DNA from: Bacteroidales bacterium
GTDB lineage: Bacteria > Bacteroidota > Bacteroidia > Bacteroidales > JAQXIO01
Assembly (NCBI GenBank): GCA_029007825.1
Contig: JAQXIO010000067.1
Coordinates: forward strand, 3,147 to 67,146
Length of the DNA: 64,000 bases
Direction of reading: 5' to 3'
Of the stretch, positions 42,773 through 60,157 are shown one piece after another (the first letter of the stretch is position 1; each line of letters begins with the position of its first letter). The notes beneath the pieces were generated by a model. That model was not told the DNA's origin. It saw nothing but the letters and a program-made list of their open reading frames with translations, and searched no databases. The position numbers and the translations under genes are program-made.

Positions 42773-43158
42773 AACGCTTCGCCGCACACCGCATCTGCTT
42801 TTCTCCCGGAGCCTGCTTCGACATCTACTGGATCGGACTTGACGACGACGGCTCCCTCCTCCAACTGGAGCCCCTCGAAAACGAAATAGCCGCAACCGTT
42901 TTCCTCAACGGCTTGATCCTGATGGTTCCCGCAGGGCAATACGCAAGCCCGGAAGAAGCCGAAGAGCAATTCAACCGCTACATAACACGACACCCCCGCC
43001 GGAAACTCACGGAATTTCTGGAAGAAACAGGATTGACCGCCCCACCCCGCATCGGTGGGCACTACTATCCCCTACACCTTGAAAACTTCGATTTCCCTGC
43101 GTCGGAACTCCGCGCAGACAACAGCCGTGGCGACCGCCACGTTAAGCGACTTATCTGA
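42769..43158 (+). CDS. hypothetical protein; last 22 codons lie inside the left 65-bp direct repeat
   Basis: 129-aa ORF with ATGA start/stop overlap with the upstream gene. No motif. Its 3-prime end (FDFPASELRADNSRGDRHVKRL) is encoded by the repeat copy at 43087-43151. Confidence 0.5.
   Translation: MKRFAAHRICFSPGACFDIYWIGLDDDGSLLQLEPLENEIAATVFLNGLILMVPAGQYASPEEAEEQFNRYITRHPRRKLTEFLEETGLTAPPRIGGHYYPLHLENFDFPASELRADNSRGDRHVKRLI
43087..43151 (+). repeat. 65-bp direct repeat, left copy (att-like)
   Basis: ttcgatttccctgcgtcggaactccgcgcagacaacagccgtggcgaccgccacgttaagcgact is identical base for base to 53931-53995. It contains the internal palindrome cgtggcg-ac-cgccacg (43126-43141). Confidence 0.95.
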
Positions 43159-43531
43159 CAACATCCATTCCGGAAACCTGCAAAAACCGCCTCTGCCTTT
43201 CGTTTTCGGGAACACCCATTTCCGCTTAATCGCAAAAAATTCCGTACAAACAAAATCTTATAAATATACCCGTTCCAGGTACCAGCGCCGGAATTTAGCC
43301 CGGTATTTGGAAAAAAGATAAGACTCATCCGGAGCATAAAACAGTTGTCCACTCACCCTTCTCCGCAATCGGTACCCCATTCGCATTTTGCAAAATGGCA
43401 AGAAAAGAAAAACCAGCCACTGCGCCGGAACAGATTCGAAAAATATAGGAGAAACTCGGCAATGAAATACCTTCATTTTTCGGTGTAAGTTTATAAATCC
43501 TACTCACTATCTTTTTTATACGATAGAGATA

Positions 43532-45928
43532 CTATCGTGATCTCTCTTCTTCGTTTCCTATCTGTGCCTTTTTTACATTAACCTCTTTTCCTGCACGAAA
43601 ATTCCAACGGGCAGATATTCCAAAAGCACGTCCGGCAATCGATTGATGAGAAATTACAGTTCGGGTGCTTATCCCCGGCTGTTCCATTTCGGCTCTCATA
43701 GTCCATTTACCATTATCAAATATATTATTAACAACAGCCGATACGGTCAATCTATTTTGCAAGAAACTTTTTCGAAGACCCATATCGAACGAGTTATAAG
43801 CCTTTGTTTTCATATTTCCTTCAAGTCCTCCTGACATATAAGAAAAATTAGCTTCTAAACTCCAATTTTTCATGAAAGTAAATATATTATTAATACGGCC
43901 TTGAAATATGCTTTTATTATATTCATAATCATTTACCACGTTTCTTGCATAGGCATATGTCGCATCAACTCCTAATCGCCACCATTTAAAGGGATTAAAC
44001 GGCATATTGAGAGAAGTATAATATTGTTGGGACTTGCCGATATTTTGACTTTGATAAAGAGTAACCTCCGGATTGTCAATGTCTTGCATCATGACTTGAG
44101 CTACCATTCCTTTACCATCAAAAAATCCTAATGTCAATGAATATTTCTGTCTCAAAATACCCGTCACATTGTAATGATTATAATAAGATGGTTGAAGGTC
44201 GGGATTTCCCACTATATAACTGTAACTGCTGATTTGCTGTCGATAAGGATTAAGATTGCTAAAACTAGGACGATCGATGCCTTGACTAAAACTTGCATTG
44301 ATCATATTTCCTTTTTCTTTATTTAAAATATATTGAAGACTGATAAAACCAAAGAAATCTGTGTAATGAAGTTTTTTAACATCTTCCGGATGAGAATATG
44401 AATAAGGATTAACCAAAGTATTTTCCACTCTTAAACCAGCATTCAAATTAATCTTTCCTAAAGAAGCAGATCCATTAATGTAGGCTCCTAAAACACCTTC
44501 TTTGTATATATAATTATCGTCGAGATCAGGATCAGGAATCATATTGCCATCTTCTAATTTCGAATTGATTAATTCTGTGTTCATATTCGTATATGTATAT
44601 TTTATTCCCGTTTCCGCTCGAAATTTCGAATTAAAGATATGATTATAATCCGCCTTAATAGTATACAGATCAGTTTGTCCGTTCCAATCCATCGTATTCC
44701 CCTTTTCAATCGACTGCAACAGATCAAGTTTCTCAAATGAATAACTATCCGAATACCTATTGTTCCGATCATATAGATAATCAGCAATTACTTTTAAATT
44801 AGACCCCTTTTCATCTATGGTAATATTATAATTTAATGATGCCATATATCTATGATTTTTAATATCCGAATCATAAGTACTGGTTAAATCGGAGATCTCA
44901 TCTGAAACTTTTGTGTATCCCGAAGATGGGCTTTGAGTAGCATTATTATTAATTGAATAATCAAAATTTACGCCAATATTCTGTTTATCGGTAATTTCAT
45001 AAACGCTACCCAAACGCCCTGAATAAGATTTTACTTTTGCAGAACCCTTACTTATATTATGAATTTCTCTTTTATTTCCCGTAAGATAATGGGTTAACTC
45101 CTCCACAGTGGACTTAATCTTTTTATCGTCATAATTAAAGTTTGAATAGAAACTAAGTTTATTGATTCGATAATCAAGATTCACACTCGGACGGAGCAAG
45201 GAAGGGAAAATATTTTTTTGCATATTCATATTCATGCCAACAGAACCTGTAAGCCCGGCATTAACCGAACGTTTCAACTTGATCTTAATTACTCCGCCCA
45301 TTGCATTAGCATCATATTGTGCTCCTGCTGTCGGTATAATTTCAATTGAACTTACTTGTTCTGCATCTATGCTTTCCAAATATACCATCAATTCTTCATG
45401 AGACATTTTCAACTCCCGATCGTTTACATAAATCTGCGATACGTTATTGCCGTTAATAGAAAGTCCTTTTCCCCTTGCATACCAGACTCCCGGCGCTAAG
45501 CCCAACAGTTCTAAAGAAGTTCTGCCGATAGCAATGGGCTTTCCTGCAGTAATAAATGTATAGCTATCAGCGGTACGTCGGATCATATCGGCTGTTATCA
45601 TGACATCATTGAGTTGGTTTACAGATTCTTTTAAAATCAAATCACCGATATTTATTTTTCCTTCTACTTTGATTGGCTTTATTAGTGTCTCGTAACCTAA
45701 AAATGCAACCCGTAAAATATAATTATTTTTAGCAATATTTGCTATCTCGAATTTTCCGTCATTATCAGCAACAGTTCCTGAAACTGTAAGGGAATCAGTA
45801 TCTAACAGACTAACTGTAGCAAATGCTAAAGGATTATTCTGTTGATCTTTTATAGTTCCGTTAATGGATTCTCCTAAAACAGGGAAAGATAAGTAAACTA
45901 AAACGAAAATTAATGTGTGTTTTTTCAT
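43532..45928 (-). CDS. outer-membrane beta-barrel protein with CarboxypepD_reg-like and plug domains (TonB-dependent-receptor-like)
   Basis: 798 aa. Signal peptide. INGTIKDQQNNPLAFATVSLLD...DGKFEI (CarbopepD_reg). Plug-like segment (LELLGLAPGV...GGVIKIKLKR). Alternating beta-strand pattern to the C-terminus. Starts 11 nt after the upstream gene. Confidence 0.85.
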   Translation of the reverse strand: MKKHTLIFVLVYLSFPVLGESINGTIKDQQNNPLAFATVSLLDTDSLTVSGTVADNDGKFEIANIAKNNYILRVAFLGYETLIKPIKVEGKINIGDLILKESVNQLNDVMITADMIRRTADSYTFITAGKPIAIGRTSLELLGLAPGVWYARGKGLSINGNNVSQIYVNDRELKMSHEELMVYLESIDAEQVSSIEIIPTAGAQYDANAMGGVIKIKLKRSVNAGLTGSVGMNMNMQKNIFPSLLRPSVNLDYRINKLSFYSNFNYDDKKIKSTVEELTHYLTGNKREIHNISKGSAKVKSYSGRLGSVYEITDKQNIGVNFDYSINNNATQSPSSGYTKVSDEISDLTSTYDSDIKNHRYMASLNYNITIDEKGSNLKVIADYLYDRNNRYSDSYSFEKLDLLQSIEKGNTMDWNGQTDLYTIKADYNHIFNSKFRAETGIKYTYTNMNTELINSKLEDGNMIPDPDLDDNYIYKEGVLGAYINGSASLGKINLNAGLRVENTLVNPYSYSHPEDVKKLHYTDFFGFISLQYILNKEKGNMINASFSQGIDRPSFSNLNPYRQQISSYSYIVGNPDLQPSYYNHYNVTGILRQKYSLTLGFFDGKGMVAQVMMQDIDNPEVTLYQSQNIGKSQQYYTSLNMPFNPFKWWRLGVDATYAYARNVVNDYEYNKSIFQGRINNIFTFMKNWSLEANFSYMSGGLEGNMKTKAYNSFDMGLRKSFLQNRLTVSAVVNNIFDNGKWTMRAEMEQPGISTRTVISHQSIAGRAFGISARWNFRAGKEVNVKKAQIGNEEERSR

Positions 45929-45939
45929 ATCTTAAAAAA

Positions 45940-48111
45940 TCAATATGGAGTAAAAACGAAAAGATTTGACATATACCATCCAATATATTTAGAAATATAA
46001 TTTTGCACCCCAAAATCTTGAATCTTTAATTCATCTTTATATTGCATTAGCATCTTTTGTTTATCATCCTGTAAAGATTTCAATTGACTTTGTCCGCTTA
46101 AAACCAAATATCTGGTCGCATATAGCTCATAATTTAATTTATTATTCTTGTCAAACTCCACCAATGCCAAATTAAGCCATGCTTTAGGCAAATTTGGCAT
46201 CATCTCTAAGGCTTTGGAAATAAATTTTTCTGCTTCTGATTTTCTATCTAGTAAATATAGGCTCTTCCCGATATTCGAAATGATTATTGGATTTTGTTCA
46301 CGCTCGGCACTATTTATCAAGGACTCAATAAGAATGTCTTTTACATAAGGATCTGCATTATCAATTTCCTTCCAATAACAAGAGTTCAGTACAGACGGAT
46401 TATATTTTACCGCTTTAATTAAATAATCAGTCCATTTATTATTATTTTTATTTAAATATAAAATACGTGACAATGATAAATTATATAGAGCATTTTCTGG
46501 AAATTCTTCTACTAAAGTTTTTAGTCTATTTATAGCAACAATAGTATTTCCTCTCTCATAAATCATATAAGCAATATTGTGGTCAAGCAAAGGACTCCTA
46601 TAATAATTGGTTACGCATCGAAAATATTTAATCGCAATATTTAAATTTACAGTATCGTTCATTTCGTAATACTGTTTCCAATACATATATCCCTTGTTTA
46701 TAAAAGTTGGCATAAAATCGTCACAGTCTTTCAATATTTTTAGCGCACTATCAATATTGCCCCCTTCGGCCAATTTTACAGCTTTATCATTAAGTTTATT
46801 AGAGTTGCTTAAAGAAAGAGAAATCGATAAGATGCCTAGGCAAATAATAAAAGGTATAATTGAAATCCATTTAGTTATGTCTTTATTTATTATAAATGTA
46901 TTCTTTGCGTCAATATTCTGAACTGCCGCTAATAGTGTAAACATAACTAATTTCAGAGACATAGAATTCAACAATACCGGAAAAGACAACTCTCTAATCA
47001 AAATTGTTACGGATATAATTAGAAACAGAGGGAAAATAAGATTTAAATGGATCCGTTTAAGCAGATAAACAAAAATTACAATTAAGAATAATAACCATAG
47101 ACTAAATCCAATTATCCCTTTCTCTATCAATAATTGAGATATTATATGGGGAGCGAATGTTGTGAAACTTGTTTTATCAGATTCGTATCTCTTTGTATTT
47201 ATTATTTGAGAAAATGTACCTGAACCAGCCCCGAAGAATAAATTTTCATTTATTTTTTTGAAAGATGCTTTAGATGACAGAACCCTCCCCTCTATACTTT
47301 TTTGTTGGGAGATAGTTTCTGTAAAATTTAAAGTTTGAAAAACTTCCGAAACAAATGGCCTTATTATTAGCAATAGACATATGGCTACACAACAAGATAA
47401 ACATAGTTTAGTAATCAATTTTGTTTTGCTAAATACAAGAAGCAAAAATAAAGATATCAAAAGAAAAATAAACGCAACATAAATCCCTCTTGAAAAGGAT
47501 GTTATTATTCCATATGTTACAGGAATCAAGCAGAAAATAAGTATTATTCTCAATCTTAAAAGTTTTCTACAATATAAAATTGAAAATAGTATTAATCCTG
47601 CAAATCCTAAAAGATACGAACTCCATATATTTATAGATTGGCCTAATGGTTTATATAAATACCTAAATGGATATAGACTGTCAAATTGGGCAATATTATA
47701 AATTAAATCCTCAAAATAGAAAAATGCGACACAACCTAATAATGCTGCGACTCCTATTATTAAACCATAAGAAAATAACAAATATTCAAATTCAACTTTT
47801 TTGTTAAAACATAATCTCAATACCAAATAATATAGCGTGCAAATAACGCTTATTTTTAAGTGTATGAAATTTGTAATGAAATTTACCGATATAAATTGCA
47901 GTATTATTTCGTATAATAATAAAATTACAATTAGCGTATCAATACAAGTAAGACGTAAAACAGCCGATTTTAACTTAATAAATATTACAAAGGATAATAT
48001 AATTCCGATTGAGAAAAACGGATCATTAATCTTTGAAGTTAATGATAATATAAATAAAATTGCTAATAAAAATAGGCTTACTATCAATTGAGGCTTTATA
48101 GATGAAGTCAT
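45940..48111 (-). CDS. polytopic membrane protein with O-antigen-ligase-like (Wzy_C) core and C-terminal TPR repeats
   Basis: 723 aa. About 10-12 TM segments. Wzy_C-type motifs (SFSRGIYVAF ... R..S.K..F.KI....FFGAGSGTF ... FAPHIISQLLIEKGIIGF). The C-terminal ~300 aa have TPR-like repeats (AEKFISKALEMMPNLPKAWLNLALV). Starts 3 nt after the M50 gene. Confidence 0.8.
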   Translation of the reverse strand: MTSSIKPQLIVSLFLLAILFILSLTSKINDPFFSIGIILSFVIFIKLKSAVLRLTCIDTLIVILLLYEIILQFISVNFITNFIHLKISVICTLYYLVLRLCFNKKVEFEYLLFSYGLIIGVAALLGCVAFFYFEDLIYNIAQFDSLYPFRYLYKPLGQSINIWSSYLLGFAGLILFSILYCRKLLRLRIILIFCLIPVTYGIITSFSRGIYVAFIFLLISLFLLLVFSKTKLITKLCLSCCVAICLLLIIRPFVSEVFQTLNFTETISQQKSIEGRVLSSKASFKKINENLFFGAGSGTFSQIINTKRYESDKTSFTTFAPHIISQLLIEKGIIGFSLWLLFLIVIFVYLLKRIHLNLIFPLFLIISVTILIRELSFPVLLNSMSLKLVMFTLLAAVQNIDAKNTFIINKDITKWISIIPFIICLGILSISLSLSNSNKLNDKAVKLAEGGNIDSALKILKDCDDFMPTFINKGYMYWKQYYEMNDTVNLNIAIKYFRCVTNYYRSPLLDHNIAYMIYERGNTIVAINRLKTLVEEFPENALYNLSLSRILYLNKNNNKWTDYLIKAVKYNPSVLNSCYWKEIDNADPYVKDILIESLINSAEREQNPIIISNIGKSLYLLDRKSEAEKFISKALEMMPNLPKAWLNLALVEFDKNNKLNYELYATRYLVLSGQSQLKSLQDDKQKMLMQYKDELKIQDFGVQNYISKYIGWYMSNLFVFTPY

Positions 48112-48114
48112 ATA

Positions 48115-49335
48115 TTAAAGCGTTTTAGCTGCATCATTTATCTTTAGCAAGTGTTTTTTTACAAGCGGATATAAGGTTTTATATAAAACATATACAGTAA
48201 ACATGAAAAAAATAAGTTGCCCGAAACACCTCTGCATCAACTGTAAATCAGGCATGGATCCAGTAGAAATCATAAATATCAATTCCTTTATATGCCCCGG
48301 AAAGGTCCTGAAGAATTTTATTATAAACACAGGTATGAAATATAAAAAATAAAAACCGAAAATCAAGTTAACTAGTATTGTATATATAATTGCAACCGTT
48401 CTTTGCTTTTTTGAAATAGCTAAAAGGTAGGGTCGCTTATTAATAGGCTTTTTAAAAGATCGATTAAAATAATACTTAAATACTTCAGAAGTTCTTTGCC
48501 TTAAGTTGGGAATACCCAATAAATCTGACATAATCCAATAACCATCAAATTTTAAAAATGGATTAAGAGTAATCGCCATATTAATATTTACCGACAGGAT
48601 ATAATACTTTAATATATTATTTCCGGTTTCAGCATATATCAAAAACATGGGAATCAGTAATATTAGTTGAAAATATATTCCCGCTATATTTACCACCATT
48701 TTTTGTAGTTTTGGTAACTGCCATACTTCAGAAACATCGGTGTAAAAAACAGGAAAATTTATATAAAGCCCAAATCCAATTCCTCCGTGATTAACTCCAA
48801 AATATCTGCATGCGGAGGCATGCCCTAACTCATGAAAAAATGAAGATAATATAAACAATCCCAATAATCCGATAATCATATAAAGATCTATCTGGTTAGT
48901 ATTGAATATTGTTAAATTATTCGTAAAAAACAGTATCTCTAAAACCACTATCGCTACCATAATAAGTAACGATATCCATTTATTAAATAATACCTTAAGA
49001 ATATTGGATAATGTACCTATTGTTTTTTCAGAAAGCAGCTCTATATTAAAAATAAATGGAGAAGATTTTTCCTTAGAAGCAGGCTTCAATATTTTACCCA
49101 AACAATTTTCTATTATAGATTCAATTTCTTCATCATTAAATATCCGCCCTTTTTTTGCATAAAACTCTTTCAACCCGTCTATAGATGATTTTTCTTTCAA
49201 AAGATCTATTAACTCAAAGACTGTTTCGTTAATTTCAAAATTTCTTTCTTTATAACATACTATATAGCGCTGATCGACATTCGATGTTGCCAGCTTTCGT
49301 ATTTCAAGCTCATGAATCAATTTGAGATCTACCAT
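48115..49335 (-). CDS. M50-family (site-2-protease-like) intramembrane zinc metalloprotease with PqqD/RRE-like N-terminal domain
   Basis: 406 aa. HExxH in a TM helix (FFHELGHA). Second M50 signature NxxPxxxxDG (NPFLKFDGYW). N-terminal ~85 soluble aa (YIVCYKERNFEINETVFELIDLLKEKSSIDGLKEFYAKKGRIFNDEEIESIIENCLGKIL) have the layout of PqqD-type peptide-binding domains. Confidence 0.85.
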   Translation of the reverse strand: MVDLKLIHELEIRKLATSNVDQRYIVCYKERNFEINETVFELIDLLKEKSSIDGLKEFYAKKGRIFNDEEIESIIENCLGKILKPASKEKSSPFIFNIELLSEKTIGTLSNILKVLFNKWISLLIMVAIVVLEILFFTNNLTIFNTNQIDLYMIIGLLGLFILSSFFHELGHASACRYFGVNHGGIGFGLYINFPVFYTDVSEVWQLPKLQKMVVNIAGIYFQLILLIPMFLIYAETGNNILKYYILSVNINMAITLNPFLKFDGYWIMSDLLGIPNLRQRTSEVFKYYFNRSFKKPINKRPYLLAISKKQRTVAIIYTILVNLIFGFYFLYFIPVFIIKFFRTFPGHIKELIFMISTGSMPDLQLMQRCFGQLIFFMFTVYVLYKTLYPLVKKHLLKINDAAKTL

Positions 49336-49353
49336 AATTTAGAACAATTGAGA

Positions 49354-49376
49354 GGGGGTATAAATTATATACCCCC
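49354..49376 (-). terminator. intra-operon GC-clamped stem-loop just after precursor gene (possible partial terminator or mRNA-stabilising/processing hairpin)
   Basis: gggggtata (49354-49362) pairs with tataccccc (49368-49376), 5-nt loop, 18 nt downstream of the precursor stop on the minus strand. Only a weak U-tract follows. Confidence 0.5.
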
Positions 49377-49394
49377 AAAAGTTTAGCCTACAAG

Positions 49395-49583
49395 TTATGA
49401 TACCGGAGAACAAACGTTTTGTTCTGAGCTACACTGAACGGCGCAAAAACAAGCGGCACCGTCAATCCCATCTACAGGGCCAAACAGATCCAACAAGCCT
49501 CCCACCGTAAGAATGTCTGTTTCAAGACGTTTCTCAAGTTCCTGAACAAAAAAATCATCATACAACTGCTCATTAAGAGGCAT
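49395..49583 (-). CDS. candidate RiPP precursor peptide (acidic helical leader, GG motif, Cys-rich C-terminal core)
   Basis: 62 aa: MPLNEQLYDDFFVQELEKRLETDILTVGGLLDLFGPVDGIDGAACFCAVQCSSEQNVCSPVS. Cys at 45, 47, 51 and 58. Lies 65 nt after the rSAM/SPASM gene and 59 nt before the M50 gene, on the same strand. Confidence 0.75.
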   Translation of the reverse strand: MPLNEQLYDDFFVQELEKRLETDILTVGGLLDLFGPVDGIDGAACFCAVQCSSEQNVCSPVS

Positions 49584-49648
49584 TAATTCCTCTTTTTTTC
49601 ATTTTTTTTCATAGTGAAAATTTAAAATTAAATTAATAAAAACACAGG

Positions 49649-51052
49649 TTACTGCATAGCCGGCATAACACACTCCTCGTACGCTTTATTAGCAGCATAT
49701 TTAAAGGTATTAGAATAGCCATCACAATAATTGCTGTTTATATCTTTATTTCTTGTAATAGAAAGGTGTAGGCATCCTCCACTACATAGCAGAGCGTATT
49801 TGCACACGGAACAATTTTCTGATCCATTTATATTTCTGGCATGCCATCTACTAAGCTCTGGTGTCCACTGTATTTTATCGGAGTATTTGCCTATTACATT
49901 TTGAGGGTTTCCCACAAGGCTCCAACAGCCATAAATATTTCCATACGGATCAAAAATATAAGAACCGCTTTGGGCTGCACAAAATGTTGAATTTAAATAT
50001 ATCTTCCTTTTTTCTTTAATCGCTTTTGATAATTTATTATATATTCCAAAATCCTGACACCCGTACTTATTACCATTAAATTCTAATTGCTTGTAATTTA
50101 TTCTATTAAATTCTTCTCTATTTAAATAGTTTAAAACAGCGCTTTTATTATTAGCATCGGGAGAATAATCCTTTAACAAGGCCGACTTAAATGCGAATTT
50201 TTCAAATTTACTATATCCAAGTTCGTCGAAATAATTTAAAATTTTTTTAATGTCACTGATGTTATTTTTATCAGTATTGTAACGTATCGCAACAGCTATA
50301 TCTTTTTTTAATGCAATTCCTATATTTTTCACTATCTTATCAAACGATCTTCCCGTTAAATAATGAATACGCCTATTATCATGTTCTTCCTTAAACCCAT
50401 CAATGGTTATCTGCAAAGTATTAATCTTTTCAGGAGAAAGCAGATCTTCATAGTGATCTAAATCATAGCCATTGGTTATAGCCATAAAAGTCATTCCAAA
50501 TTTTTGTGCCCTTGATACTATATATTCTACTATTTCTTTATTTTCTTTAAGTAAAGGCTCTCCCCCATATAAAATACTTTGCCGGCTTCTTAATTCTGCC
50601 CGAGGTTCTATTTGTTCCATTGCATAGAATGCTTTATCAACCAGCTCTTTAGTAAATTTTCTCTTTGTCCATTGATGTCCCTCCCCTGATATCTCGTTTT
50701 CATAACAATATGGGCATCTAAAATTACAATCATAGGAAATTAAAAACATGAAATTTTTAAAAAGGCTTTTATCTTTACGATGCATCAGATTTGCAAGCTT
50801 TTTTACATATTCTCTCTCTTCCCGCAATGTCTTTGTTGTAATATATCCTCTACTAATTAATAATTTCAAAGTATCATCATTTAGGCCATCTGATTGTAAA
50901 TTTATGAAGCTTCCATTTTCCTTTAAATACTTCACTATTTGTTTACTTGCAACATCTATAGCTCCTGTGTAGCCATGAATTAGCATGTATTTTTCCGATG
51001 CTTTTTCTAATTTAATGAAAATAGTATACGAAGATAAACGATAATTAATCAT
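49649..51052 (-). CDS. radical SAM / SPASM-domain peptide maturase
   Basis: 467 aa. CNFRCPYC (Cx3Cx2C at C109/C113/C116) after a ~100-aa N-terminal extension. GGEPLL. Full SPASM Cys pattern: CAAQSGSYIFDPYGNIYGC (with Gx4C), CSVCKYALLCSGGC (Cx2Cx5Cx3C) and a final NYCDGY. Confidence 0.92.
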   Translation of the reverse strand: MINYRLSSYTIFIKLEKASEKYMLIHGYTGAIDVASKQIVKYLKENGSFINLQSDGLNDDTLKLLISRGYITTKTLREEREYVKKLANLMHRKDKSLFKNFMFLISYDCNFRCPYCYENEISGEGHQWTKRKFTKELVDKAFYAMEQIEPRAELRSRQSILYGGEPLLKENKEIVEYIVSRAQKFGMTFMAITNGYDLDHYEDLLSPEKINTLQITIDGFKEEHDNRRIHYLTGRSFDKIVKNIGIALKKDIAVAIRYNTDKNNISDIKKILNYFDELGYSKFEKFAFKSALLKDYSPDANNKSAVLNYLNREEFNRINYKQLEFNGNKYGCQDFGIYNKLSKAIKEKRKIYLNSTFCAAQSGSYIFDPYGNIYGCWSLVGNPQNVIGKYSDKIQWTPELSRWHARNINGSENCSVCKYALLCSGGCLHLSITRNKDINSNYCDGYSNTFKYAANKAYEECVMPAMQ

Positions 51053-51547
51053 AATGCATTAGATTGTTAATTATTTATAATTATAGATAGAAATAATATT
51101 ATTTTACTATAAATATAATATTATCCCCAAAACAAGCAGATTATTATCTAATAATTAGGATTTCCTAAATAAGAAGAAGTCCTGATTTTTCCATAAAATA
51201 AAAATTTAAGGTGTGGCTTATATAGTAACTCAATTACAAATCTATAATTAAACTTTCATTATTTGAAATAGTCAATGCTATAAAATACGTTAATTATATA
51301 AAATTATACTTTTATTATGATATTCATAAATACCGATAGGTATCCGTTCGCTCCGATTATAAATTTCTCCATATATTTTTTTTAACCTAATACTCTATTA
51401 AAATTTTGGATTCCGATAAAATGGAATAACTTTTTCAATTCGAGATTTTAAAAGACGAAGCCTGAATATTACCATAGTCCTACCAACCACAAAACAACAG
51501 AAAAGTAATAGATCGCACTTTTAAACTTTCTCATTATTTTCATACGG

Positions 51548-53380
51548 CTATTCTACTGGAGATCTATAAATATCCGAGAAATAACGAAAAAACAGTTCAT
51601 CCCTGTTTTCGGCAGGATTGAAATGGCCTTCATTCTCGACACGCCGGTAAAGAATACGGTTATTATATTTCTTTGCCTTTTCCACAAATTTGTCCGCCTG
51701 ACTGATAGGAATTTCATTATTACGCGAATGCGATATGAATAAATACGTCTGCGCGGGCAATTTATTTAAACTGTCAATCAAATAATCGGGATAAATCCCG
51801 TTTGAAACTCCAACCCCAGCAGCCAGCGCCGGATTACGCTGGCAGGCACTCAACGCTTTGGTACCACCGGCGCATCCACCCAACAAATAAATACCTCGGT
51901 CGTCGATAGCATAATGCCGTTTCAAATCGCTCAACGCTTCATTCAGATCTGTATCCGCTTCGGCATTGTAAATAAGCTGGGCACGCAAATAAGGAAATAA
52001 CAAAGCAAAACCGTACTCATCGGCAAGACGGTACTCCCAACTAAGGAAATCAATATCCGAAATATACCAGCTAAGAGGCATAATCGGAGGATCGGCAAAA
52101 TAGTAGGGCATATAAATGACCAATGGAACCTTACGGGTGCTATCGGCACATAACTGCGGGGAAATATGGAAAAGATAATATTGTTCCGACGAATCCGACG
52201 GAGATACATACTTTTTTAGAAAAGTTCCCGGTCGGTTGCGCAAAGTCGAACCACTCGAAACAGCCCGGTCTATATCCTGCAATTGAAGCAAAGTCGATAA
52301 TTTATTCCTCGAATTAAATGAAACATCATGCACCCGGTAAGCCGCCGAACGCTGCTCCTTCAAATGATCGTACCGCTGTTGCAGAGAAGAGACATAATCC
52401 CCGGCATCTGCCCTCTCTCCCGATTCGCAATACACCTCTGAAACCAAAGCATCGAAAAACGGATCTATTTCTCCTATAAAACAATACTCTGCCAAAACCG
52501 TATCCGGCAATGATAATTCAGACCGGTACAAACCGTCCGATAATCCTTCGGGAAGCGCTACTTTCCAACTACTATATCTCTCTACAACACCAGCCTCTCC
52601 CGCCGGTAAAGTATTCCGGTCAACCCCGAATTGTTTACAGTCCTGCAAATCATACAATGCAAACCCGACCTTCTCCGAATAGGCGTAAGGCCCCAAATAA
52701 ATCTCCACCGAATCGTCCCTTCCCTCAATAACAGGATCGACAACGAAATCACACCAGTAATCGTTCCGGTAATGACTTCTGGCAACCAGCTCATCCTGTA
52801 CCGAACAATAAAACTCCCAGTGGGAAACACCCTTCTCTACTTCCGTTTGTGAAAGTTTTACAACCACCGTATTATCGCCCTCAGCAAGAGAAGCGACAAT
52901 ATGGTTCTCTACCTGTTTTTTTATATTTCTTTTCCACTGACATGCAAAAATATTCTCCGAATTCAGCCAGACTTCCATCTGCTGCGCAAAGTTAAAACCG
53001 AAAACAACTGTCTTGGCCTGAGAAGAATACACATTAAAAAACAAATACACACACGATGGTTCTTTAACACTTGGAAAAAAATCATTAAAATCAAAATAAT
53101 TCTCCAGATTTGGCGACAAAGTCCGCACCTTAACACCCCGCTTTCTCAAAACATCCAAAGCGGCAAATCCACCTTTATATATTTCCGGATCGAAATTACC
53201 GGATAAATCCGAACAGCTTGCACTATCGATACGGAGCGGAAACGAAGCACAAACCTTATTTATCACTACTTCCGAATTGCCTTCGGAAAAATCGACCGAA
53301 AACCGGGGGGTTTTTGTACATGAACAAATCAGCACACAAAAAACAGGGAAAACTCGAAAGAAAATACATGTGGTTTTCAT
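51548..53380 (-). CDS. lipoprotein with C-terminal alpha/beta-hydrolase-like domain (Cys at nucleophile-elbow position)
   Basis: 610 aa. Lipobox LICSC. C-terminal ~200 aa are esterase/peptidase-like with IYLLGGCAGG where GxSxG is expected, and a late His (ENEGHF). Confidence 0.7.
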   Translation of the reverse strand: MKTTCIFFRVFPVFCVLICSCTKTPRFSVDFSEGNSEVVINKVCASFPLRIDSASCSDLSGNFDPEIYKGGFAALDVLRKRGVKVRTLSPNLENYFDFNDFFPSVKEPSCVYLFFNVYSSQAKTVVFGFNFAQQMEVWLNSENIFACQWKRNIKKQVENHIVASLAEGDNTVVVKLSQTEVEKGVSHWEFYCSVQDELVARSHYRNDYWCDFVVDPVIEGRDDSVEIYLGPYAYSEKVGFALYDLQDCKQFGVDRNTLPAGEAGVVERYSSWKVALPEGLSDGLYRSELSLPDTVLAEYCFIGEIDPFFDALVSEVYCESGERADAGDYVSSLQQRYDHLKEQRSAAYRVHDVSFNSRNKLSTLLQLQDIDRAVSSGSTLRNRPGTFLKKYVSPSDSSEQYYLFHISPQLCADSTRKVPLVIYMPYYFADPPIMPLSWYISDIDFLSWEYRLADEYGFALLFPYLRAQLIYNAEADTDLNEALSDLKRHYAIDDRGIYLLGGCAGGTKALSACQRNPALAAGVGVSNGIYPDYLIDSLNKLPAQTYLFISHSRNNEIPISQADKFVEKAKKYNNRILYRRVENEGHFNPAENRDELFFRYFSDIYRSPVE

Positions 53381-53915
53381 AGCGGTAATTTCATTAATAT
53401 AATAAAGTCAATCCAAGCTTCTCTCCCTTCTTGTCCAAACCGGGAAACGCCTACCACCTACAGAAAATTCTACAAAAAGGCCTTCCCTCAATTCAGAGAC
53501 AGCAACAAAAGACGGAACAAAACACCCTTCATAATAGCAAACCTCAGTATAAATCAAAGGTCATTTACAAACATCGGAAATATATTCGAAAAAATAAGCT
53601 CCAACCTTTAATTTATAAAATTTCCAAATAACCTTTTCCTATATCCTTCTCCGGAACACCGACAAAAGTAAAAAAGAAAAAACCGCCACACCCTATAAAT
53701 AAAGCTATTTCAACATTAGCATAAAGCGCTGCGGACATTATTCGCAAAAAGACCTCTTGCCCCAACCATTATGCAACGTCTGAAAATCGAAAAATCTCGA
53801 ACAAACGGAAGCGATCAATATACTTAAAAGTAAAAGTACAAACTACGTATATATCAATCACAAAAAAACAATTGGCATATCCCGGTAAACATTATCCGCT
53901 ACGAAAATAAAACCT

Positions 53916-54680
53916 CTATTTTTTCGGAAATTCGATTTCCCTGCGTCGGAACTCCGCGCAGACAACAGCCGTGGCGACCGCCACGTTAAGCGACTCTGAC
54001 GTAACACTGTCAGGCGGAAAATTCGGAATATAAAGCCGGTGCGTCAGAAGGGCATCCACCTCCGCACTGATACCGTTCCCCTCGTTCCCCATAACGATCA
54101 TACCCTTTCCGTCCAGTTTTTCACCATACAGGTTATTACCGTCCAGAACGGTTCCGTAAAGAGGCATATCCAACGTTTTCAGAAACGGTACAAGATCAGT
54201 ATAATGCACCCTCACGCGTGCCAGCGCACCCATCGTAGCCTGCACCGTCTTCGGGTTATACACATCCGCGCACTGGTGCGAACAAAACACCTCGCCGATA
54301 CCGAACCAATCCGCCAGACGGATAATCGTACCCATATTGCCCGGATCCTGCACCCCGTCCAACGCCAACGACAATTTCCCTTTCAGCGCCTCCCTGTCCG
54401 GCTCGTAAACCGGTTGGCGGAATACTGCCAGCACATCCTGCGGCGACTTCAGCAGCGAAGCGCTACGGATATCCTGCTCGTCCGCCACCACTAACTCCTC
54501 CGTATGTAAATCGCCCTGCGTAGCCATCCATTGCGGCTTTGCCACCAGCAACTCACACTCGAAATGCCCTAACAGGTCGGCCACTAATTTATTCCCTTCG
54601 GCAAGAAAAACACCGTACTCATCCCGAAACTTCTTTTTCTCTAACGACTTAATATATTTGATTTTATTCTTACTCAGCAT
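53916..54680 (-). CDS. TrmH/SpoU-family RNA 2-prime-O-methyltransferase
   Basis: 254 aa. SpoU motifs DPGNMGTIIRLAD, MGNEGNGIS and SLNVAVATAVV. The last ~21 codons before FPKK-stop lie in the right 65-bp repeat. Confidence 0.9.
   Translation of the reverse strand: MLSKNKIKYIKSLEKKKFRDEYGVFLAEGNKLVADLLGHFECELLVAKPQWMATQGDLHTEELVVADEQDIRSASLLKSPQDVLAVFRQPVYEPDREALKGKLSLALDGVQDPGNMGTIIRLADWFGIGEVFCSHQCADVYNPKTVQATMGALARVRVHYTDLVPFLKTLDMPLYGTVLDGNNLYGEKLDGKGMIVMGNEGNGISAEVDALLTHRLYIPNFPPDSVTSESLNVAVATAVVCAEFRRREIEFPKK
53931..53995 (+). repeat. 65-bp direct repeat, right copy (att-like), inside 3-prime end of TrmH-family gene
   Basis: Identical to 43087-43151. On the minus strand it encodes SLNVAVATAVVCAEFRRREIE. 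Confidence 0.95.
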
Positions 54681-55616: not shown

Positions 55617-56936
55617 TTACTCCAAACGTCCCGTTGCCCGCAGATATTCCGTTTCATAAATCTTATACTGCGTCTGAGCCTCTATATAATTGCTCTGAGA
55701 CTGCTGCCATTGCGACTGCGCATCTAACAAATCGGTCAGCGTACACATCGAAGCATCGTAACGCCCCTGCATCACGCGCAGATTCTCATCAGCCTGCCGG
55801 CACCCCAGCTCAGCCGTCTCCACCATACGATAACCATCCGTCACATTCTGGACAGCCTGGCGCACCTCGATACTCAGCAAACGCGTATTCCTCTGTAAAT
55901 CCAGTTCTGCATTCTGCAGATCCAGCCTCGCCTTCTTCACCTTCTTCAACCCCTCGCCCCAGTGGAAAAGCGGAATATTGACCGAAAGCATGGCAAGGCC
56001 GAAACCATCCTGGAACTTTTGGGTATAAGGAACATATCCGCCCATACCGTCGCTCGCCACACCATTCATCTTCACATTACCGTAATAAGAATATCCTGCC
56101 GAAAGTCCCACCATAGGAAGAATATCGGCACGGACAGACTTGATCTGTTCCTGCTGCGCCCCTACCTGCATCTGCAAAAGCTTCAGTTCGGGACGTTCGG
56201 CAATGCTCTCGTCCATCCGTGTAGGAGCCGCAACCGAAATAACCGTATCGGTCGGCACGATTTCCGTGTCCAATGATTTGCCCAACACATTGCAAAGCGC
56301 CAGTCGACACAAGTCAGAACCGTTCCGCGCCTTCTGCAACTGGTACTCTATCTCGCTCCGCTTCGTCGTGATACGCAGCAAATCGTTCTCCGTTCCCATC
56401 TCCGCGGCAACACTTACCTCCGCCTGCCTGTACAAAGCCTCCATCTGCCGGCTGTACGTTTCGAGCATACGCACCTTCCTCTCCACCGCGATAAAAGTCC
56501 AGTAAGCATGATCGGCATCCGCTATCACCTCCATACGCGTTTTACGCTGCGTCTCGGCAGCACATTCGCGCCCGATCTTAGCTAACTTATTACCGGCCAT
56601 GATACGCCCTCCGGCATAAATAGGCTGTGTCAGCGTTATACCCGCAAAATACATGCCCCGCATCTGCAATTCCGCACCCATCATATCGAGATCGGGAAAC
56701 ACATAAGTACCTGAAGCCATAGCATCGAACTTAGGCAGATAAGCCGTAAAAGCAATTGCCTTGTCCAGTTCCGCCTGCCGCAAAGCATTATCAGCCTTCT
56801 TAAGCTCTTCGTTATGGGCAAGAGCCATCTGCCGGCACTCCGCCTGCGAAAGAACGAGAGGATTCTGTGCGGCAGCACCCATGCCCGGCACCACGATAGC
56901 AGCGATATATATAAGAATTCGTTTCATCTTTTTCAT
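55617..56936 (-). CDS. TolC-family outer-membrane efflux protein
   Basis: 439 aa. Signal peptide. Two-repeat coiled-coil/barrel organisation with typical motifs (LSLSQAECRQMALAHNEELK-type N-terminus, YLPKF, NIPLFHWG). Last gene of the efflux operon. Confidence 0.9.
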   Translation of the reverse strand: MKKMKRILIYIAAIVVPGMGAAAQNPLVLSQAECRQMALAHNEELKKADNALRQAELDKAIAFTAYLPKFDAMASGTYVFPDLDMMGAELQMRGMYFAGITLTQPIYAGGRIMAGNKLAKIGRECAAETQRKTRMEVIADADHAYWTFIAVERKVRMLETYSRQMEALYRQAEVSVAAEMGTENDLLRITTKRSEIEYQLQKARNGSDLCRLALCNVLGKSLDTEIVPTDTVISVAAPTRMDESIAERPELKLLQMQVGAQQEQIKSVRADILPMVGLSAGYSYYGNVKMNGVASDGMGGYVPYTQKFQDGFGLAMLSVNIPLFHWGEGLKKVKKARLDLQNAELDLQRNTRLLSIEVRQAVQNVTDGYRMVETAELGCRQADENLRVMQGRYDASMCTLTDLLDAQSQWQQSQSNYIEAQTQYKIYETEYLRATGRLE

Positions 56937-57001
56937 CTTAATTTAAAATCGAAACACAATACAGGTTTCTGTTACTCTTTATACAATACTGAAATACCCG
57001 G

Positions 57002-60000
57002 TCACTTCTGCGTTTTTTCCGGCTTCTTCACATGGAACAGCGCCGTATAGAACAAAGGCAGCAAAATCAGGGTAATAATCGTACCCACCGTCAGGCCGCC
57101 CATAATGGTAATAGCCATCGAACCGTACATCGGGTCGGCAACCAGCGGGATCATACCCACGATCGTGGTAAGCGACGCCATGATTACCGGACGCACACGC
57201 GATACAGTAGCATTGATCACGGCATCGTACGGATGCTGGTGCTCCTCCTTATACAGGCGGTTGATCTCATCCACCAGCACAATAGAATTTTTCACCATCA
57301 TACCGATCAGCCCCATCATACCGATAATCGCCATAAACGTAAACGGCTCGCGGAAAGTAAGCAGCGCCACGGTAATACCGCAGAACACGAACGGGAAACA
57401 GATCAGGATCAGGAAAACCTTCTTCCAGTTATTGAAAAGCAGCAGCAAAATACCAAGAATGATAAACATCGTGATAGGCATATACTTCATCAGGTTATTG
57501 ATCGCATCATCCTGCATCTCGATTTCACCCACCCACTTCATATTATAGCCCTCCGGCAGATGAATCGCATCAATATCGTCTTTGATAGACTCCATTACCT
57601 TGGCCGGCGTAGCGTCGTACAGCTCGTAATCCGGGTCGCATTCCGCCTCGATCGCACGCTGGCCGTTTTCGCGGAGCACCAAATCCTCCTCCCAGTCCAA
57701 GCGCACATCGCGCGTAACATTGCTCAGCGGCGTGCTTCGGAACATTTTATCCTGCAGCTCACTCATCCCCTTCGAGCCGGTCATAACACCCTTCATATCC
57801 TCGTCGGTCATCCGCACGTTCATCATGCTCCACACCGGTATGTCGTTCAGGTTCTTGATCTTGCTCCCGTCGGCATTGCGTACCATCAGGTTTACAATCA
57901 CCATACGGTCCTGATCGTTCAGCAAACCCACAGGCATGCCGTCCGTAGCAGCCATCAGGGCATTCCCCACGTCACCGCGCTCGATGCCAGAACGCAAAGC
58001 ATCCTGCTGCACATATTCGGCAATAAGCGATTTACCCTTCGGCTTCCAGTTATTCTGCACCGAGTACGGGTCCACATACGGGCAATTGCGCATAATAGCC
58101 TCCGCCTGCCCGGCAAGGTCGCGAAGCACGGAAGGATCGGGGCCTGTAAACTGCACCTCCACCGTATGGGTAGTAGAGATAGAGAAATTATATTTACGGA
58201 GACGGATATAAGCGTCGGGATACTTCTCCCGCAACAACTTACGAACCGACGGAATCTGTTCCACAACGGTAGCATAATCCTTACAATCCACGATCAGCTC
58301 GCCGTAACAATCGCCCCCCGATGTCATCGGACGCACTAAGCAGTAACGCGCCGGAGCACTCCCCATACTGGCAGCCACGCGTTCCACCTCCGGGTTCTGC
58401 ATCAGCAGCTCGCTCATCTCCAGCAGGTCATGGCGCACACGTTCCGGGTCTGTCTGCGCAGGCAGGTAATACTCTACGATAAACTGTTTGTAATCGAAAT
58501 CGGGGAAAAAGATATTCTTCACCTTGCTCATTCCGAAAATACAAAGAGCCAATACCGCAAAAGCCACGACAATAGTCGTTTTCTTATATTCGATCAAGAA
58601 AGCGATGCTGCGGCGCACAAAACGGTGAATAGGCGAATTCATCACCTCCTCGCTCGTTTTTTTCTTATCATCCTTCTCTCGCGCCGGCAGCCACGCCTTG
58701 GCACACATCGGCACCTGCACCAATGCCAGCACCCAGCTCGCCAACAAACTCACGCACAAAACGAGGAACAAATCGTGCGCATACTCCCCCGCCGAATCGG
58801 GCGAAAGGTAAACATTCACGAAAGTAGAAGCAGCGATTATGGTAGCCCCCAGCAACGGCATCGCCGTATTCCGCCCGATGCGGTACAGGTACGTCTTCGG
58901 CCCCAGACCCCGCTTCTTATCGATCAGGATACCGTCCATAATAACGATGGCATTATCCACCAGCATACCCATAGCGACAATAAAAGCCCCTAACGAAATA
59001 CGCTGCAAGGTAGTGCCCAGACTAAGCAAAATCGGGAAAGACACAGCAATCGTAAGCACCAGACCAAAGCCGATAATAACGCCGCTGCGGAATCCCATGG
59101 TAAAAATCAAAACCAAAATCACGATAGCCACCGACTCGATCAGGTTAATCATAAACGAATTGATCGCCTCGTCAACCTTTTCAGGCTGGAAAAAAACCTT
59201 CTCCGTCTCCATGCCGGCAGGTACCTCTTTCATCACCTCCGCCAGCCGCGCATCCACCGCTTTACCCACATCGGGCACGATAGCACTTGACTCCATAGCG
59301 ATACAAATAGCCAGAGCCGGCTTTCCGTCCACAAAAAAGCCGTTGCGCTGAGGCTCGGCATACGTCCGCTCGATCATTGCGATATCGCCCAAGCGCATCT
59401 GCTTGCCATCCATCGTGCTGATAAGCAAATTACGAATATCTTCCTCGTTCTCGATCGCCTCGTCCACGCGAAGCTGAATCTTGTCGTCGCCGTTCTGGTA
59501 AGCCCCCGCATTCACCGTCTTCCCCGCATTCTGCAAAGACATCATAATCTGCGCCGGCACAATACCGTTGCGCGAAATCTTCTCCTTCGGCACGATAATA
59601 TTGATCACCTCGTCGCGGTTCCCGACAATATTGATGCGCTTCACACCTTTTACCCCGAGCAACTCGCGGCGCAGCATCTTCGCATACTTGTACATCTCAG
59701 GATAAGAATAACCGTCGCTCGTAAAAGCATAGAAAATACCGTACACATCCATCATATCGTCCACCACGATCGGATCGTAACAATCCTGCGGCAACTTCAT
59801 CCGCGCATCGCTCACCTTACGGCGCAGCAAATCGAAATGCTGCTCTAAGTCCTTCATCAACACCGTTGTCTGGAACTCGACCGTAAACATAGCCGACCCG
59901 CTCTGACACTCGGTCTTTATCTTTTTTACGTTCGGCAAGGCACGGAGCTCGTCCTCCATAACCTGTGCCACTTTCAACTCTACCTCATGGGCACTGGCGC

Positions 60001-60157
60001 CGGGATAAGGCACCACCACCATTGCCTGCTTTACGGCGATAGCCGGGTCTTCTAACTTCGGCATCTGCAGGAACGAAAGCACACCCGCTATCAGGATACC
60101 GGCCATCAACGACCAGAACAAGGTCGGACGGCGGATAAAAAATTCGGTCAGCTTCAT
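57002..60157 (-). CDS. RND efflux permease (AcrB/AcrD/AcrF family)
   Basis: 1051 aa. 12-TM pattern with two large periplasmic loops. FFIRRPTLFW N-terminus. The start overlaps the adaptor stop (ATGA at 60155-60159). Confidence 0.95.
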   Translation of the reverse strand: MKLTEFFIRRPTLFWSLMAGILIAGVLSFLQMPKLEDPAIAVKQAMVVVPYPGASAHEVELKVAQVMEDELRALPNVKKIKTECQSGSAMFTVEFQTTVLMKDLEQHFDLLRRKVSDARMKLPQDCYDPIVVDDMMDVYGIFYAFTSDGYSYPEMYKYAKMLRRELLGVKGVKRINIVGNRDEVINIIVPKEKISRNGIVPAQIMMSLQNAGKTVNAGAYQNGDDKIQLRVDEAIENEEDIRNLLISTMDGKQMRLGDIAMIERTYAEPQRNGFFVDGKPALAICIAMESSAIVPDVGKAVDARLAEVMKEVPAGMETEKVFFQPEKVDEAINSFMINLIESVAIVILVLIFTMGFRSGVIIGFGLVLTIAVSFPILLSLGTTLQRISLGAFIVAMGMLVDNAIVIMDGILIDKKRGLGPKTYLYRIGRNTAMPLLGATIIAASTFVNVYLSPDSAGEYAHDLFLVLCVSLLASWVLALVQVPMCAKAWLPAREKDDKKKTSEEVMNSPIHRFVRRSIAFLIEYKKTTIVVAFAVLALCIFGMSKVKNIFFPDFDYKQFIVEYYLPAQTDPERVRHDLLEMSELLMQNPEVERVAASMGSAPARYCLVRPMTSGGDCYGELIVDCKDYATVVEQIPSVRKLLREKYPDAYIRLRKYNFSISTTHTVEVQFTGPDPSVLRDLAGQAEAIMRNCPYVDPYSVQNNWKPKGKSLIAEYVQQDALRSGIERGDVGNALMAATDGMPVGLLNDQDRMVIVNLMVRNADGSKIKNLNDIPVWSMMNVRMTDEDMKGVMTGSKGMSELQDKMFRSTPLSNVTRDVRLDWEEDLVLRENGQRAIEAECDPDYELYDATPAKVMESIKDDIDAIHLPEGYNMKWVGEIEMQDDAINNLMKYMPITMFIILGILLLLFNNWKKVFLILICFPFVFCGITVALLTFREPFTFMAIIGMMGLIGMMVKNSIVLVDEINRLYKEEHQHPYDAVINATVSRVRPVIMASLTTIVGMIPLVADPMYGSMAITIMGGLTVGTIITLILLPLFYTALFHVKKPEKTQK

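Follow-up and report, generated by a model that had tools for sequence, protein, structure and literature searches.

In the ranthipeptide/SCIFF and sactipeptide systems (CteB/ScfB and PapB), which make peptides that are produced on the ribosome and modified after translation (RiPPs), a radical S-adenosylmethionine (rSAM) enzyme with a SPASM domain and an N-terminal domain of the leader-binding type is encoded beside a short precursor with a cysteine-rich core. The epipeptides of Bacillus subtilis (YydFGHIJ/EpeXEPAB) follow a different, two-enzyme logic of an rSAM enzyme and a polytopic M50 protease, EpeP, which reportedly suffices for the formation of epipeptides, with leader removal and a proposed role in export (PMC10885120). 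The nine Bacteroidales RiPP clusters reported earlier are mostly of the peptidase-containing ABC transporter (PCAT)/GG type, with YcaO, LanC-like, or LanM partners (PMC10352776), and they differ from the system described here. The DNA under study is a 64,000-nucleotide stretch of a Bacteroidales genome (assembly GCA_029007825.1, contig JAQXIO010000067.1, positions 3,147 to 67,146 of the forward strand), called the window in this report and numbered from its first nucleotide. Near 44 to 51 kb it carries an operon of five genes encoding an rSAM/SPASM enzyme, a small Cys-rich peptide, an M50-like metalloprotease, a Wzy_C membrane protein with tetratricopeptide (TPR) repeats, and an outer-membrane barrel. 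Bacteroidota dominate the gut, and to our knowledge their modified peptides are almost all uncharacterized.

We consider it likely that the operon is a horizontally acquired copy of a widespread, uncharacterized cassette of the Bacteroidota and the wider FCB (Fibrobacterota-Chlorobiota-Bacteroidota) group for an rSAM-modified RiPP. A first-pass annotation of the window had proposed an uncharacterized rSAM/SPASM RiPP system, and this central claim is supported by the scores of the enzyme with peptide-maturase models, by the conservation of the precursor, and by the lack of a curated family to which the system could be assigned. No family model of NCBIfam (release 20) or Pfam is matched at its cutoff by the rSAM enzyme, the protease, or the peptide, and no description of the system came from searches of open-access full texts on the leader motif, the combination of genes, or RiPP mining in Bacteroidales. 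The five open reading frames (ORFs), all on the minus strand, lie exactly where they had been placed (Table 1) and are separated by gaps of 65, 59, 3, and 11 nt.

The gene set is a common family and is not unique to the window. Searches with the rSAM enzyme gave 959 homologs at E ≤ 1e-10, the best of which, apart from the query, is 52% identical, and relatives are present in at least 539 GTDB species-representative genomes. Most of these are Bacteroidales; the remaining carriers include Flavobacteriales (Elizabethkingia), Saprospiraceae, Balneolaceae, Ignavibacteria, Latescibacterota, and Kryptoniota. When the six-frame ORFs of the relatives' loci were searched with the window proteins, the M50 protease, the peptide, the Wzy_C-TPR protein, and the barrel were found on the same strand, downstream of the rSAM gene. 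Co-occurrence was counted in the 39 loci with at least 6 kb of sequence upstream and at least 9 kb downstream: the protease is present in 35, the precursor in 32, the barrel in 25, and the Wzy_C-TPR protein in 22, and the exact five-gene set of the window recurs in 16. In most loci there is overlap or direct contact between the protease and Wzy ORFs. A gene neighborhood conserved in dozens of genera is more than chance, and what it defines is a large RiPP family without a name, whose leader is new and whose accessory genes are unusual and specific to diderms.

The rSAM enzyme has the features first read in its sequence. Its core matches the Pfam Radical_SAM domain (PF04055; E = 4.9e-18), and the CX3CX2C motif, CNFRCPYC, occupies residues 109 to 116 after an N-terminal domain of ~100 residues, with C109, C113, and C116 invariant among homologs. 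The SPASM domain scores 53.2 bits with TIGR04085 (cutoff, 27), and all seven of its cysteines (C358-x12-G-x4-C376, C414xxC417x5C423x3C427, and C443) are invariant across 16 homologs. The top NCBIfam matches, every one of them below its cutoff, are CefB (128.1 bits), TIGR04463 (119.3), FlmE/OhkG, and PapB (114.6); CefB and TIGR04463, which outscore PapB, are uncharacterized families named for Cys-rich targets. In the PDB the best match is CteB (5WGG), at E = 2e-14 for the single sequence and 5e-25 for the profile. The N-terminal domain is spanned by alignments with the N-terminal regions of maturase models (CefB, FlmE/OhkG, Clo7bot, and geopeptide); its profile, searched by itself, found no match in the PDB. 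The Flm/Ohk clusters are unrelated to the system, and a reading of the locus as a defense system was dropped when PADLOC gave just generic, viperin-like similarity in the rSAM core.

Could the enzyme instead be an anaerobic sulfatase-maturating enzyme (anSME), or some other maturase of proteins or cofactors, with a spurious small ORF beside it? Structures of anSMEs are indeed the second-best PDB matches (E = 1.5e-15), but with the anSME model the enzyme reaches 66 bits (cutoff, 349), less than with 11 families of peptide maturases, and there is no sulfatase nearby in the window. Moreover, the small ORF is kept beside rSAM homologs: of the 85 sequences searched with a hidden Markov model (HMM) of the leader, the window included, 72 contain precursors. 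This alternative is effectively refuted.

The 62-residue peptide carries four cysteines within its last 18 residues (CFCAVQCSSEQNVCSPVS), as described at the outset. Its leader comprises about residues 1 to 34 (LNEQLYDDFFVQELEKRLETDILTVGGLLDLF), and the core, approximately GPVDGIDGAACFCAVQCSSEQNVCSPVS, contains the four cysteines. The leader HMM detects the peptide at E = 3e-18, its sole match in the window, and no Pfam or NCBIfam model matched the peptide or two of its homologs, even at E ≤ 1. Precursors of the family occur in one to six tandem copies per locus and share the leader LNxxLYxxFxxxELExRLETDPLxxGGLLDL, with LNxxLYxxhxxxELExRLE as its minimal conserved part. The cores are hypervariable: 87 unique examples have a median length of 31 residues, are acidic and poor in Lys and Arg, and contain 13% Cys (median of four per core, mode of three). 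Cysteine is the only residue universally enriched in them, and small motifs such as CP(N/E/Q)L and FCSPIC..C.(I/V)Y recur; the core nearest to that of the window is GFCFIQCSSEQNICSPVTR, in P0241 of locus L165. The product of the cassette is very probably a small, cysteine-cross-linked peptide.

The metalloprotease has the motifs HELGH (residues 168 to 172) and NPFLKFDG (258 to 265) that had been recognized in it, and both hold across 30 homologs, in which H168, E169, H172, N258, P259, D264, and G265 are invariant. Its score with the Pfam M50 model (PF02163) is below the cutoff (18 against 27.2 bits). Among NCBIfam models the best match is the daptide metalloprotease NF041824, over residues 97 to 292 (E = 4e-28, 98.5 bits), and the YydH/LiaK model NF058609 is matched at E = 1.5e-16. 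Homologs carry the JGI name “putative peptide zinc metalloprotease protein.” For an AlphaFold2 model of the protein (mean predicted local distance difference test [pLDDT], 85), the best Foldseek match is SpoIVFB, with a probability of 0.99 but an E value of 0.02 and template-modeling scores of 0.27 to 0.37. An N-terminal soluble domain (approximately residues 11 to 83; pLDDT of ~80 to 87) is predicted to have a β3-α3 topology, with strands at 11-15, 23-28, and 31-35 and helices at 37-49, 52-61, and 68-83, and gave no significant fold match.

The Wzy_C assignment also stands, with PF04932 matched at E = 4e-13 (49.8 bits; cutoff, 31.7) and followed by a C-terminal TPR domain of ~260 residues. 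All 39 cassette homologs compared keep R208, R276, G294xG296, and E330xGxxG335. Foldseek with a model of the whole protein returned only TPR proteins, and the membrane domain was instead tested by sequence profile, which matched the oligosaccharyltransferase 9RMK (E = 1.9e-5) and WaaL 7TPG (E = 5e-4); the SxxRG Arg, the loop Arg, GxGxG, and ExGxxG are shared with these structures. The topology of WaaL is known, and a helix count of the model made against it suggests that the TPR domain is probably periplasmic. A search for homologs of this protein gave at least 11 matches, and in a reverse neighborhood search the M50 gene lies immediately upstream in all 12 of the closest relatives. We also note that, in relatives without the RiPP genes, the Wzy_C-TPR protein and a neighboring ~650-residue protein with a transglutaminase-like core and a discoidin domain (c3) make up a two-gene module in their own right.

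The last gene product is an outer-membrane barrel, as had been proposed, with PF14905 (OMP_b-brl_3) matched at E = 1.3e-87 (295 bits; cutoff, 27). It is preceded by CarbopepD_reg_2 (E = 5.9e-16, 58.7 bits; cutoff, 32.2) and Plug (E = 1.7e-5, 25.7 bits; cutoff, 23.9) domains.

Seen across genomes, the cassette is built from three modules. The first, nearly universal in the family, comprises one or more precursors, the rSAM/SPASM enzyme, and the M50 protease with its N-terminal soluble domain. The second is the Wzy_C-TPR protein, usually accompanied by c3. The third takes one of two forms: a CarboxypepD_reg/plug/barrel protein, or a MacB-type ABC transporter (two FtsX proteins and an ATPase) with OEP and MFP partners. 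The closest relative of the window cassette, L165, has an rSAM enzyme and a protease that are 52% and 54% identical to those of the window, in the order c3, rSAM, precursor, M50, Wzy, and MacB pump; the window keeps the order rSAM, precursor, M50, and Wzy but terminates in the PF14905 barrel. Cassettes outside the Bacteroidales lack the Wzy protein and have, in place of Wzy and barrel, a 278-residue CarboxypepD_reg protein and a ~660-residue protein with an α-α toroid domain like those of squalene-hopene cyclases (C-terminal domain) and prenyltransferases; some of these loci add a 400-residue TPR protein. In six Prevotella-type loci the protease is fused in frame to plug and barrel, giving a protein of ~1094 residues, via an internal segment resembling a signal peptide (KKIMAAAVMILAVVTDAGAQQ), and this fusion precedes both the rSAM gene and as many as four precursors of identical type (…DFCSPICDFTCLVY). 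The fusion links protease and barrel.

Horizontal acquisition of the window cassette, which had been suggested from its visibly AT-rich composition, is well supported by that composition, by a direct repeat at the 3′ end of a trmH-like gene, and by interrupted synteny. The computed GC content is 0.27 to 0.34 across 44 to 52 kb compared with 0.49 to 0.53 in the flanks. The operon lies in an island bounded by two copies of a 68-nt repeat, each containing a GC-rich hairpin (CGTGGCGGTCGCCACG). In at least eight other Bacteroidales, convergent lipoprotein, lspA, and dksA genes are found within ~1 kb of trmH; in the window they are 11.1 kb away. The closest TrmH proteins, 65% identical, come from metagenome-assembled genomes (MAGs) of termite-gut Dysgonomonadaceae, and an exact DNA search of species representatives for the trmH/repeat junction, which could have revealed an empty insertion site, found no match. 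Exact look-ups of the window rSAM enzyme and of one protein from the flanks likewise gave no record. The same shift in composition is seen elsewhere, the GC content of the cassette being below that of its flanks in 25 of 31 loci (median difference, -8.9 points) and none showing the opposite. A complete rSAM-precursor-barrel-M50 cassette on an 18.8-kb Muribaculaceae plasmid (L078; CP061010.1) is direct evidence of carriage on mobile DNA.

Table 1. Features of the window and of related loci (positions in the window, except where a locus number is given; strand as reported)
Feature	Position	Strand	Length or remark
rSAM/SPASM peptide maturase	49649-51052	-	467 aa
Precursor peptide	49395-49583	-	62 aa
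M50-like polytopic metalloprotease, presumed leader peptidase	48115-49335	-	406 aa
Wzy_C (O-antigen-ligase-like) membrane protein with C-terminal TPR	45940-48111	-	723 aa
Outer-membrane protein: signal peptide, CarboxypepD_reg, Plug, OMP_b-brl_3 barrel; TonB-dependent-receptor-like	43532-45928	-	798 aa
AT-rich noncoding region upstream of rSAM gene, presumed promoter region	51053-51547	-	495 nt
Terminator-like hairpin followed by T-run, ~100 nt past stop codon of barrel gene	43413-43428	-	Consensus scan
Genomic island (p610 and five-gene operon)	43152-53995	.	10,844 bp
Left copy of 68-nt direct repeat, duplicated trmH 3′ end	43084-43151	.	
Right copy of 68-nt direct repeat, inside 3′ end of trmH-like gene	53928-53995	.	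99% identical
trmH-like RNA methyltransferase gene, insertion target	53916-54680	-	Last ~25 codons within repeat
p610, lipoprotein-like orphan ORF in island	51548-53380	-	610 aa
M50-barrel fusion, L033	3142-6426		
M50-barrel fusion, L034	6660-9944		
M50-barrel fusion, L035	2552-5836		
M50-barrel fusion, L036	2728-6012		
M50-barrel fusion, L042	6181-9474		
M50-barrel fusion, L044	6247-9528		
Non-Bacteroidales cassette versions, L015, L019, L031, L061, L063, L068	Downstream of rSAM		
Wzy_C-TPR without rSAM, M50, or precursor, c3 retained, L172, L175, L176, L178, L183-L185, L191			Around the match at ~10 kb

Several observations weigh against this reading, some of them touching the window copy itself and others the single steps of the proposed pathway. 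Genes for c3, a TPR membrane protein (c4), and a DUF3244 protein, which Bacteroidales cassettes commonly include, are missing from the window copy, as is an ABC pump. Residues 21 to 24 of its leader read ETDI, where nearly all of ~100 relatives have ET(D/K/A)P. Its barrel is only distant kin of the usual cassette barrels, with ~200 N-terminal residues that match and a barrel domain that is weakly collinear. The same gaps, together with the Pro-to-Ile change at a near-invariant position, a precursor N-terminus ~8 to 10 residues shorter than usual, a barrel that is not orthologous, and the absence of an integrase, could be taken to mean that the window holds a decaying, nonfunctional remnant. 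We think this improbable: all five ORFs are intact, full length, and tightly spaced, the catalytic motifs and invariant family residues are all kept, and a near-orthologous core is found elsewhere (P0241/L165).

For a functional cassette, we propose that the rSAM enzyme, whose N-terminal domain would recognize the leader, binds the precursor and links core cysteines to other residues as thioethers of the sactionine or ranthionine type, a step for which we see about an even chance. Thioether formation is the likeliest chemistry because the best-matching characterized families, CteB and PapB, make thioethers and because Cys is the sole constant of the cores. The assignment rests on distant homology and core Cys-richness, and this counts against it, as do scores far under every curated cutoff and identities of 29 to 52% to relatives that are themselves uncharacterized. 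With curated maturase models all so far below cutoff, function cannot be transferred from them, and the enzyme might instead carry out epimerization, C-C or C-O cross-linking, or side-chain chemistry, with the cysteines serving as disulfides or metal ligands. The profile does match the cyclopropyl synthase TvgB (8VPO; E = 4e-11), and the known RiPP systems that combine an rSAM enzyme with an M50 protease, the epipeptides, are epimerase systems. Such non-thioether chemistry nevertheless seems rather unlikely. No residue other than Cys is universally enriched in the cores, the commonest number of cysteines, three, fits simple disulfide pairing poorly, CteB and PapB, the best-scoring characterized relatives, form thioethers, and the YydG/EpeE epimerase families are absent from the top matches.

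After thioether formation, the M50 protein would remove the leader, its winged helix-turn-helix-like N-terminal domain holding the leader on the cytoplasmic side, and may aid crossing of the inner membrane, as has been proposed for EpeP; we hold this step to be somewhat more likely than not. The first-pass annotation had labeled the protease as carrying a RiPP recognition element (RRE), and this label was not confirmed at the sequence level, its support being the modeled β3-α3 topology of the N-terminal domain. Nineteen such N-terminal domains gave no match to PF05402/PqqD or another RRE model in Pfam, a further point against the scheme, and a profile of the domain searched against the PDB retrieved only spurious helical repeats and no solved RRE. 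An RRE on the protease is, at present, a predicted fold.

The role of the barrel is more tentative, and so is the self-contained export route that the first-pass annotation saw in the gene set. By analogy with the closest relatives, which have a MacB-type ABC/MFP/OEP pump in its place, it may carry the peptide across the outer membrane, although we put the likelihood of this a little short of even. The pump follows the Wzy gene in L165 and in Butyricimonas, and its occurrence where the window has a barrel speaks for export as the task of the last module. Barrels of the TonB-dependent type usually import, which speaks against export. That such a barrel can export cargo is illustrated by Oar, which exports PopC (PMC6434023). 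A barrel with a Plug domain and the architecture of a TonB-dependent transporter would also suit re-uptake, the product being a pheromone or metallophore brought back through the barrel as methanobactin is through MbnT; the acidic, Cys-rich cores and the presence in many cassettes of c4, a potential sensor, are in keeping with this. Hypervariable cores and tandem arrays, however, better suit diversifying antagonism or signaling than a fixed metal site, an export pump stands in the barrel's place in the closest relatives, and the in-frame fusion in Prevotella ties the barrel to maturation and export. Re-uptake is therefore doubtful, and export of the peptide by the barrel remains our preferred, if provisional, assignment.

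The Wzy_C-TPR protein can be given a general place in the scheme but no specific activity. Judging from the model, its TPR domain is probably periplasmic, and the protein could handle the peptide, or a glycan of the envelope, on that side of the inner membrane. In WaaL and PglL the HN motif supplies a catalytic His, and the corresponding column of the cassette homologs holds Pro in 29 of 39 and Gly, Ser, Ala, or Asn in the rest, never His; the window protein reads A-P-H322 at this position. Distant relatives of the protein (Flavobacteriales, Cyclobacteriaceae, Marinilabiliaceae, Spirosomataceae, and Prolixibacteraceae) have no RiPP genes within 10 kb, most retaining c3. Both observations tell against a part in the pathway, and, given the loci with c3 only, the protein may have no action on the peptide. 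In that event the RiPP system would consist of precursor, rSAM enzyme, and protease only, and the Wzy_C-TPR protein and barrel would be a co-traveling envelope or glycan module, for example one for self-protection. The c3-associated Wzy_C-TPR genes of Flavobacteriales, Cyclobacteriaceae, Marinilabiliaceae, and others that lack the trio, a trio with an ABC transporter on a Bacillus plasmid, and the non-Bacteroidales cassettes without Wzy are what such a division would predict. We regard it as unlikely on balance, since the protease gene directly precedes all 12 closest Wzy_C-TPR relatives, the two ORFs overlap or abut, and the Wzy gene is present in 22 of the 39 well-flanked loci; even so divided, the module would be functionally coupled.

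With the Wzy_C-TPR protein kept within the pathway, a speculative extension, to which we give little credence, is that together with c3 in relatives, or with the Cys-type, α/β-hydrolase-like p610 protein in the window, it ligates the peptide to an undecaprenyl-linked glycan or an envelope acceptor, or passes the peptide to the barrel. If this were so, an O-antigen-ligase-like enzyme would produce a RiPP that is conjugated to a glycan or anchored in the envelope, and a barrel of the TonB-dependent type would release it; we know of no RiPP for which such a route of maturation and export has been described. In our main reading, by contrast, the end product of the cassette would be a secreted peptide acting in antagonism or signaling.

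The remainder of the island and its surroundings add few features. The ORFs of at least 100 residues in the island (43152-53995) are the five genes, p610, and a 101-residue ORF antisense within p610, and none of them encodes an integrase or recombinase. The GC content of p610, ~0.45, is above that of the operon, and its product has a weak C-terminal region resembling α/β-hydrolases of the S9 type, with a GGCAGG elbow. HMMs for c3 and c4 gave no match to p610, which was thereby rejected as a divergent copy of either, and a search of species-representative genomes gave no close relative. In a Terriglobia MAG (L192, 12113-14827), one homolog (E = 1e-19) immediately follows a gene for a Wzy_C-TPR protein. 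From its position and this single distant co-occurrence, p610 is a possible accessory gene, standing where relatives carry the transglutaminase-like/discoidin protein.

In the presumed promoter region there is a sequence like the Bacteroidetes -7 element, TAGATTTG, at 51237-51244; the count of this motif in the window is not above chance, and a sigma-70 promoter scan is uninformative for Bacteroidota. No Rfam family, riboswitch or other, was matched in the island. Elsewhere in the window, further 1-kb segments at 9-10, 12-13, 15-16, and 55-56 kb have GC contents of 0.36 to 0.39 against a background of ~0.50. Beyond trmH and outside the island, an RND efflux operon with host-like GC content (55617-61254, minus strand) encodes a 365-residue MFP, a 1051-residue RND pump, and a 439-residue outer-membrane factor. 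L015 and L068 have comparable pumps upstream of their cassettes, which is probably coincidence.

The cassette occurs in hundreds of species, including members of Bacteroides, Phocaeicola, Prevotella, Parabacteroides, Tannerella, Paraprevotella, and Elizabethkingia, and the window copy adds to the evidence that it moves horizontally as a compact island. Its hypervariable, often tandem cores are a signature of molecules of competition or communication, and the defined leader motif can be used for genome mining. The interest of the system lies mainly in its unusual membrane partners: it offers a test case for how a diderm passes a RiPP over two membranes without a C39/PCAT transporter, and the recruitment of an O-antigen-ligase-like TPR protein is unexplained. 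Several carriers are cultivable and genetically tractable, so these questions can be addressed directly; cultivable examples are Bacteroides acidifaciens DSM 15896, Phocaeicola sartorii DSM 21941, Tannerella forsythia ATCC 43037, and Paraprevotella clara YIT 11840.

Placed beside the described systems, the locus shares something with each. Its rSAM enzyme and Cys-rich precursor recall the ranthipeptides and sactipeptides, but the enzyme scores 85.5 bits with the SCIFF model TIGR03974 (cutoff, 425) and 114.6 bits with the PapB model NF047865 (cutoff, 340), the leader is unlike any curated precursor model, and the M50, Wzy_C-TPR, and TonB-dependent-transporter-like partners are foreign to the known clusters. 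With the epipeptides it has in common the pairing of an rSAM enzyme with a polytopic M50 protease; however, the protease scores 60.9 bits with the YydH/LiaK model (cutoff, 225), the precursor is unrelated, the rSAM enzyme is of the SPASM type and near the thioether synthases rather than an epimerase, the island has no gene for an ABC immunity transporter, and the host is a diderm in which outer-membrane and Wzy_C-TPR components have been added. The daptide metalloprotease provides the best NCBIfam match of the window protease, yet the score of 98.5 bits is below the cutoff of 300; the other daptide tailoring enzymes, in what we take to be the daptide gene set, are absent from the window set.

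The same core trio is found in another phylum, on the Bacillus thuringiensis plasmid pIS56-233 (NC_020394, 155.9-159.1 kb; L166, 5267-9977), in a cluster with a 54-residue precursor (…MACFNCSICCDNCCFNCCFQV) that has an eight-Cys core and with two rSAM/SPASM genes. One of its rSAM enzymes is ~29% identical to that of the window over 91% of the length, and its protease is 29% identical over 276 residues that include the N-terminal domain (E = 2e-27). The host is Gram positive, an ABC transporter replaces the Wzy_C-TPR protein and barrel, and the cluster is likewise uncharacterized; the similarity of the leaders of the window family to that of the Bacillus precursor is not significant.

As for the envelope components, the Wzy_C-TPR protein resembles the WaaL/PglL-type members of the Wzy_C superfamily in its score above the Pfam cutoff and in its conserved arginines and loop motifs, and differs from them in the missing HN His, an extra transmembrane helix, the ~260-residue TPR domain, and partners that are the RiPP trio and/or a transglutaminase-like protein rather than lipopolysaccharide genes. 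The barrel, with its N-terminal CarboxypepD_reg and Plug domains, is likened to Oar of Myxococcus by type as a TonB-dependent barrel and not by sequence comparison, and the cargo of Oar, PopC, is a protein. By sequence comparison, the locus is best described as a maturase like those of ranthipeptides and sactipeptides that appears to have been joined to a membrane protease of the epipeptide/daptide type, and it falls outside the bounds of each of these families.

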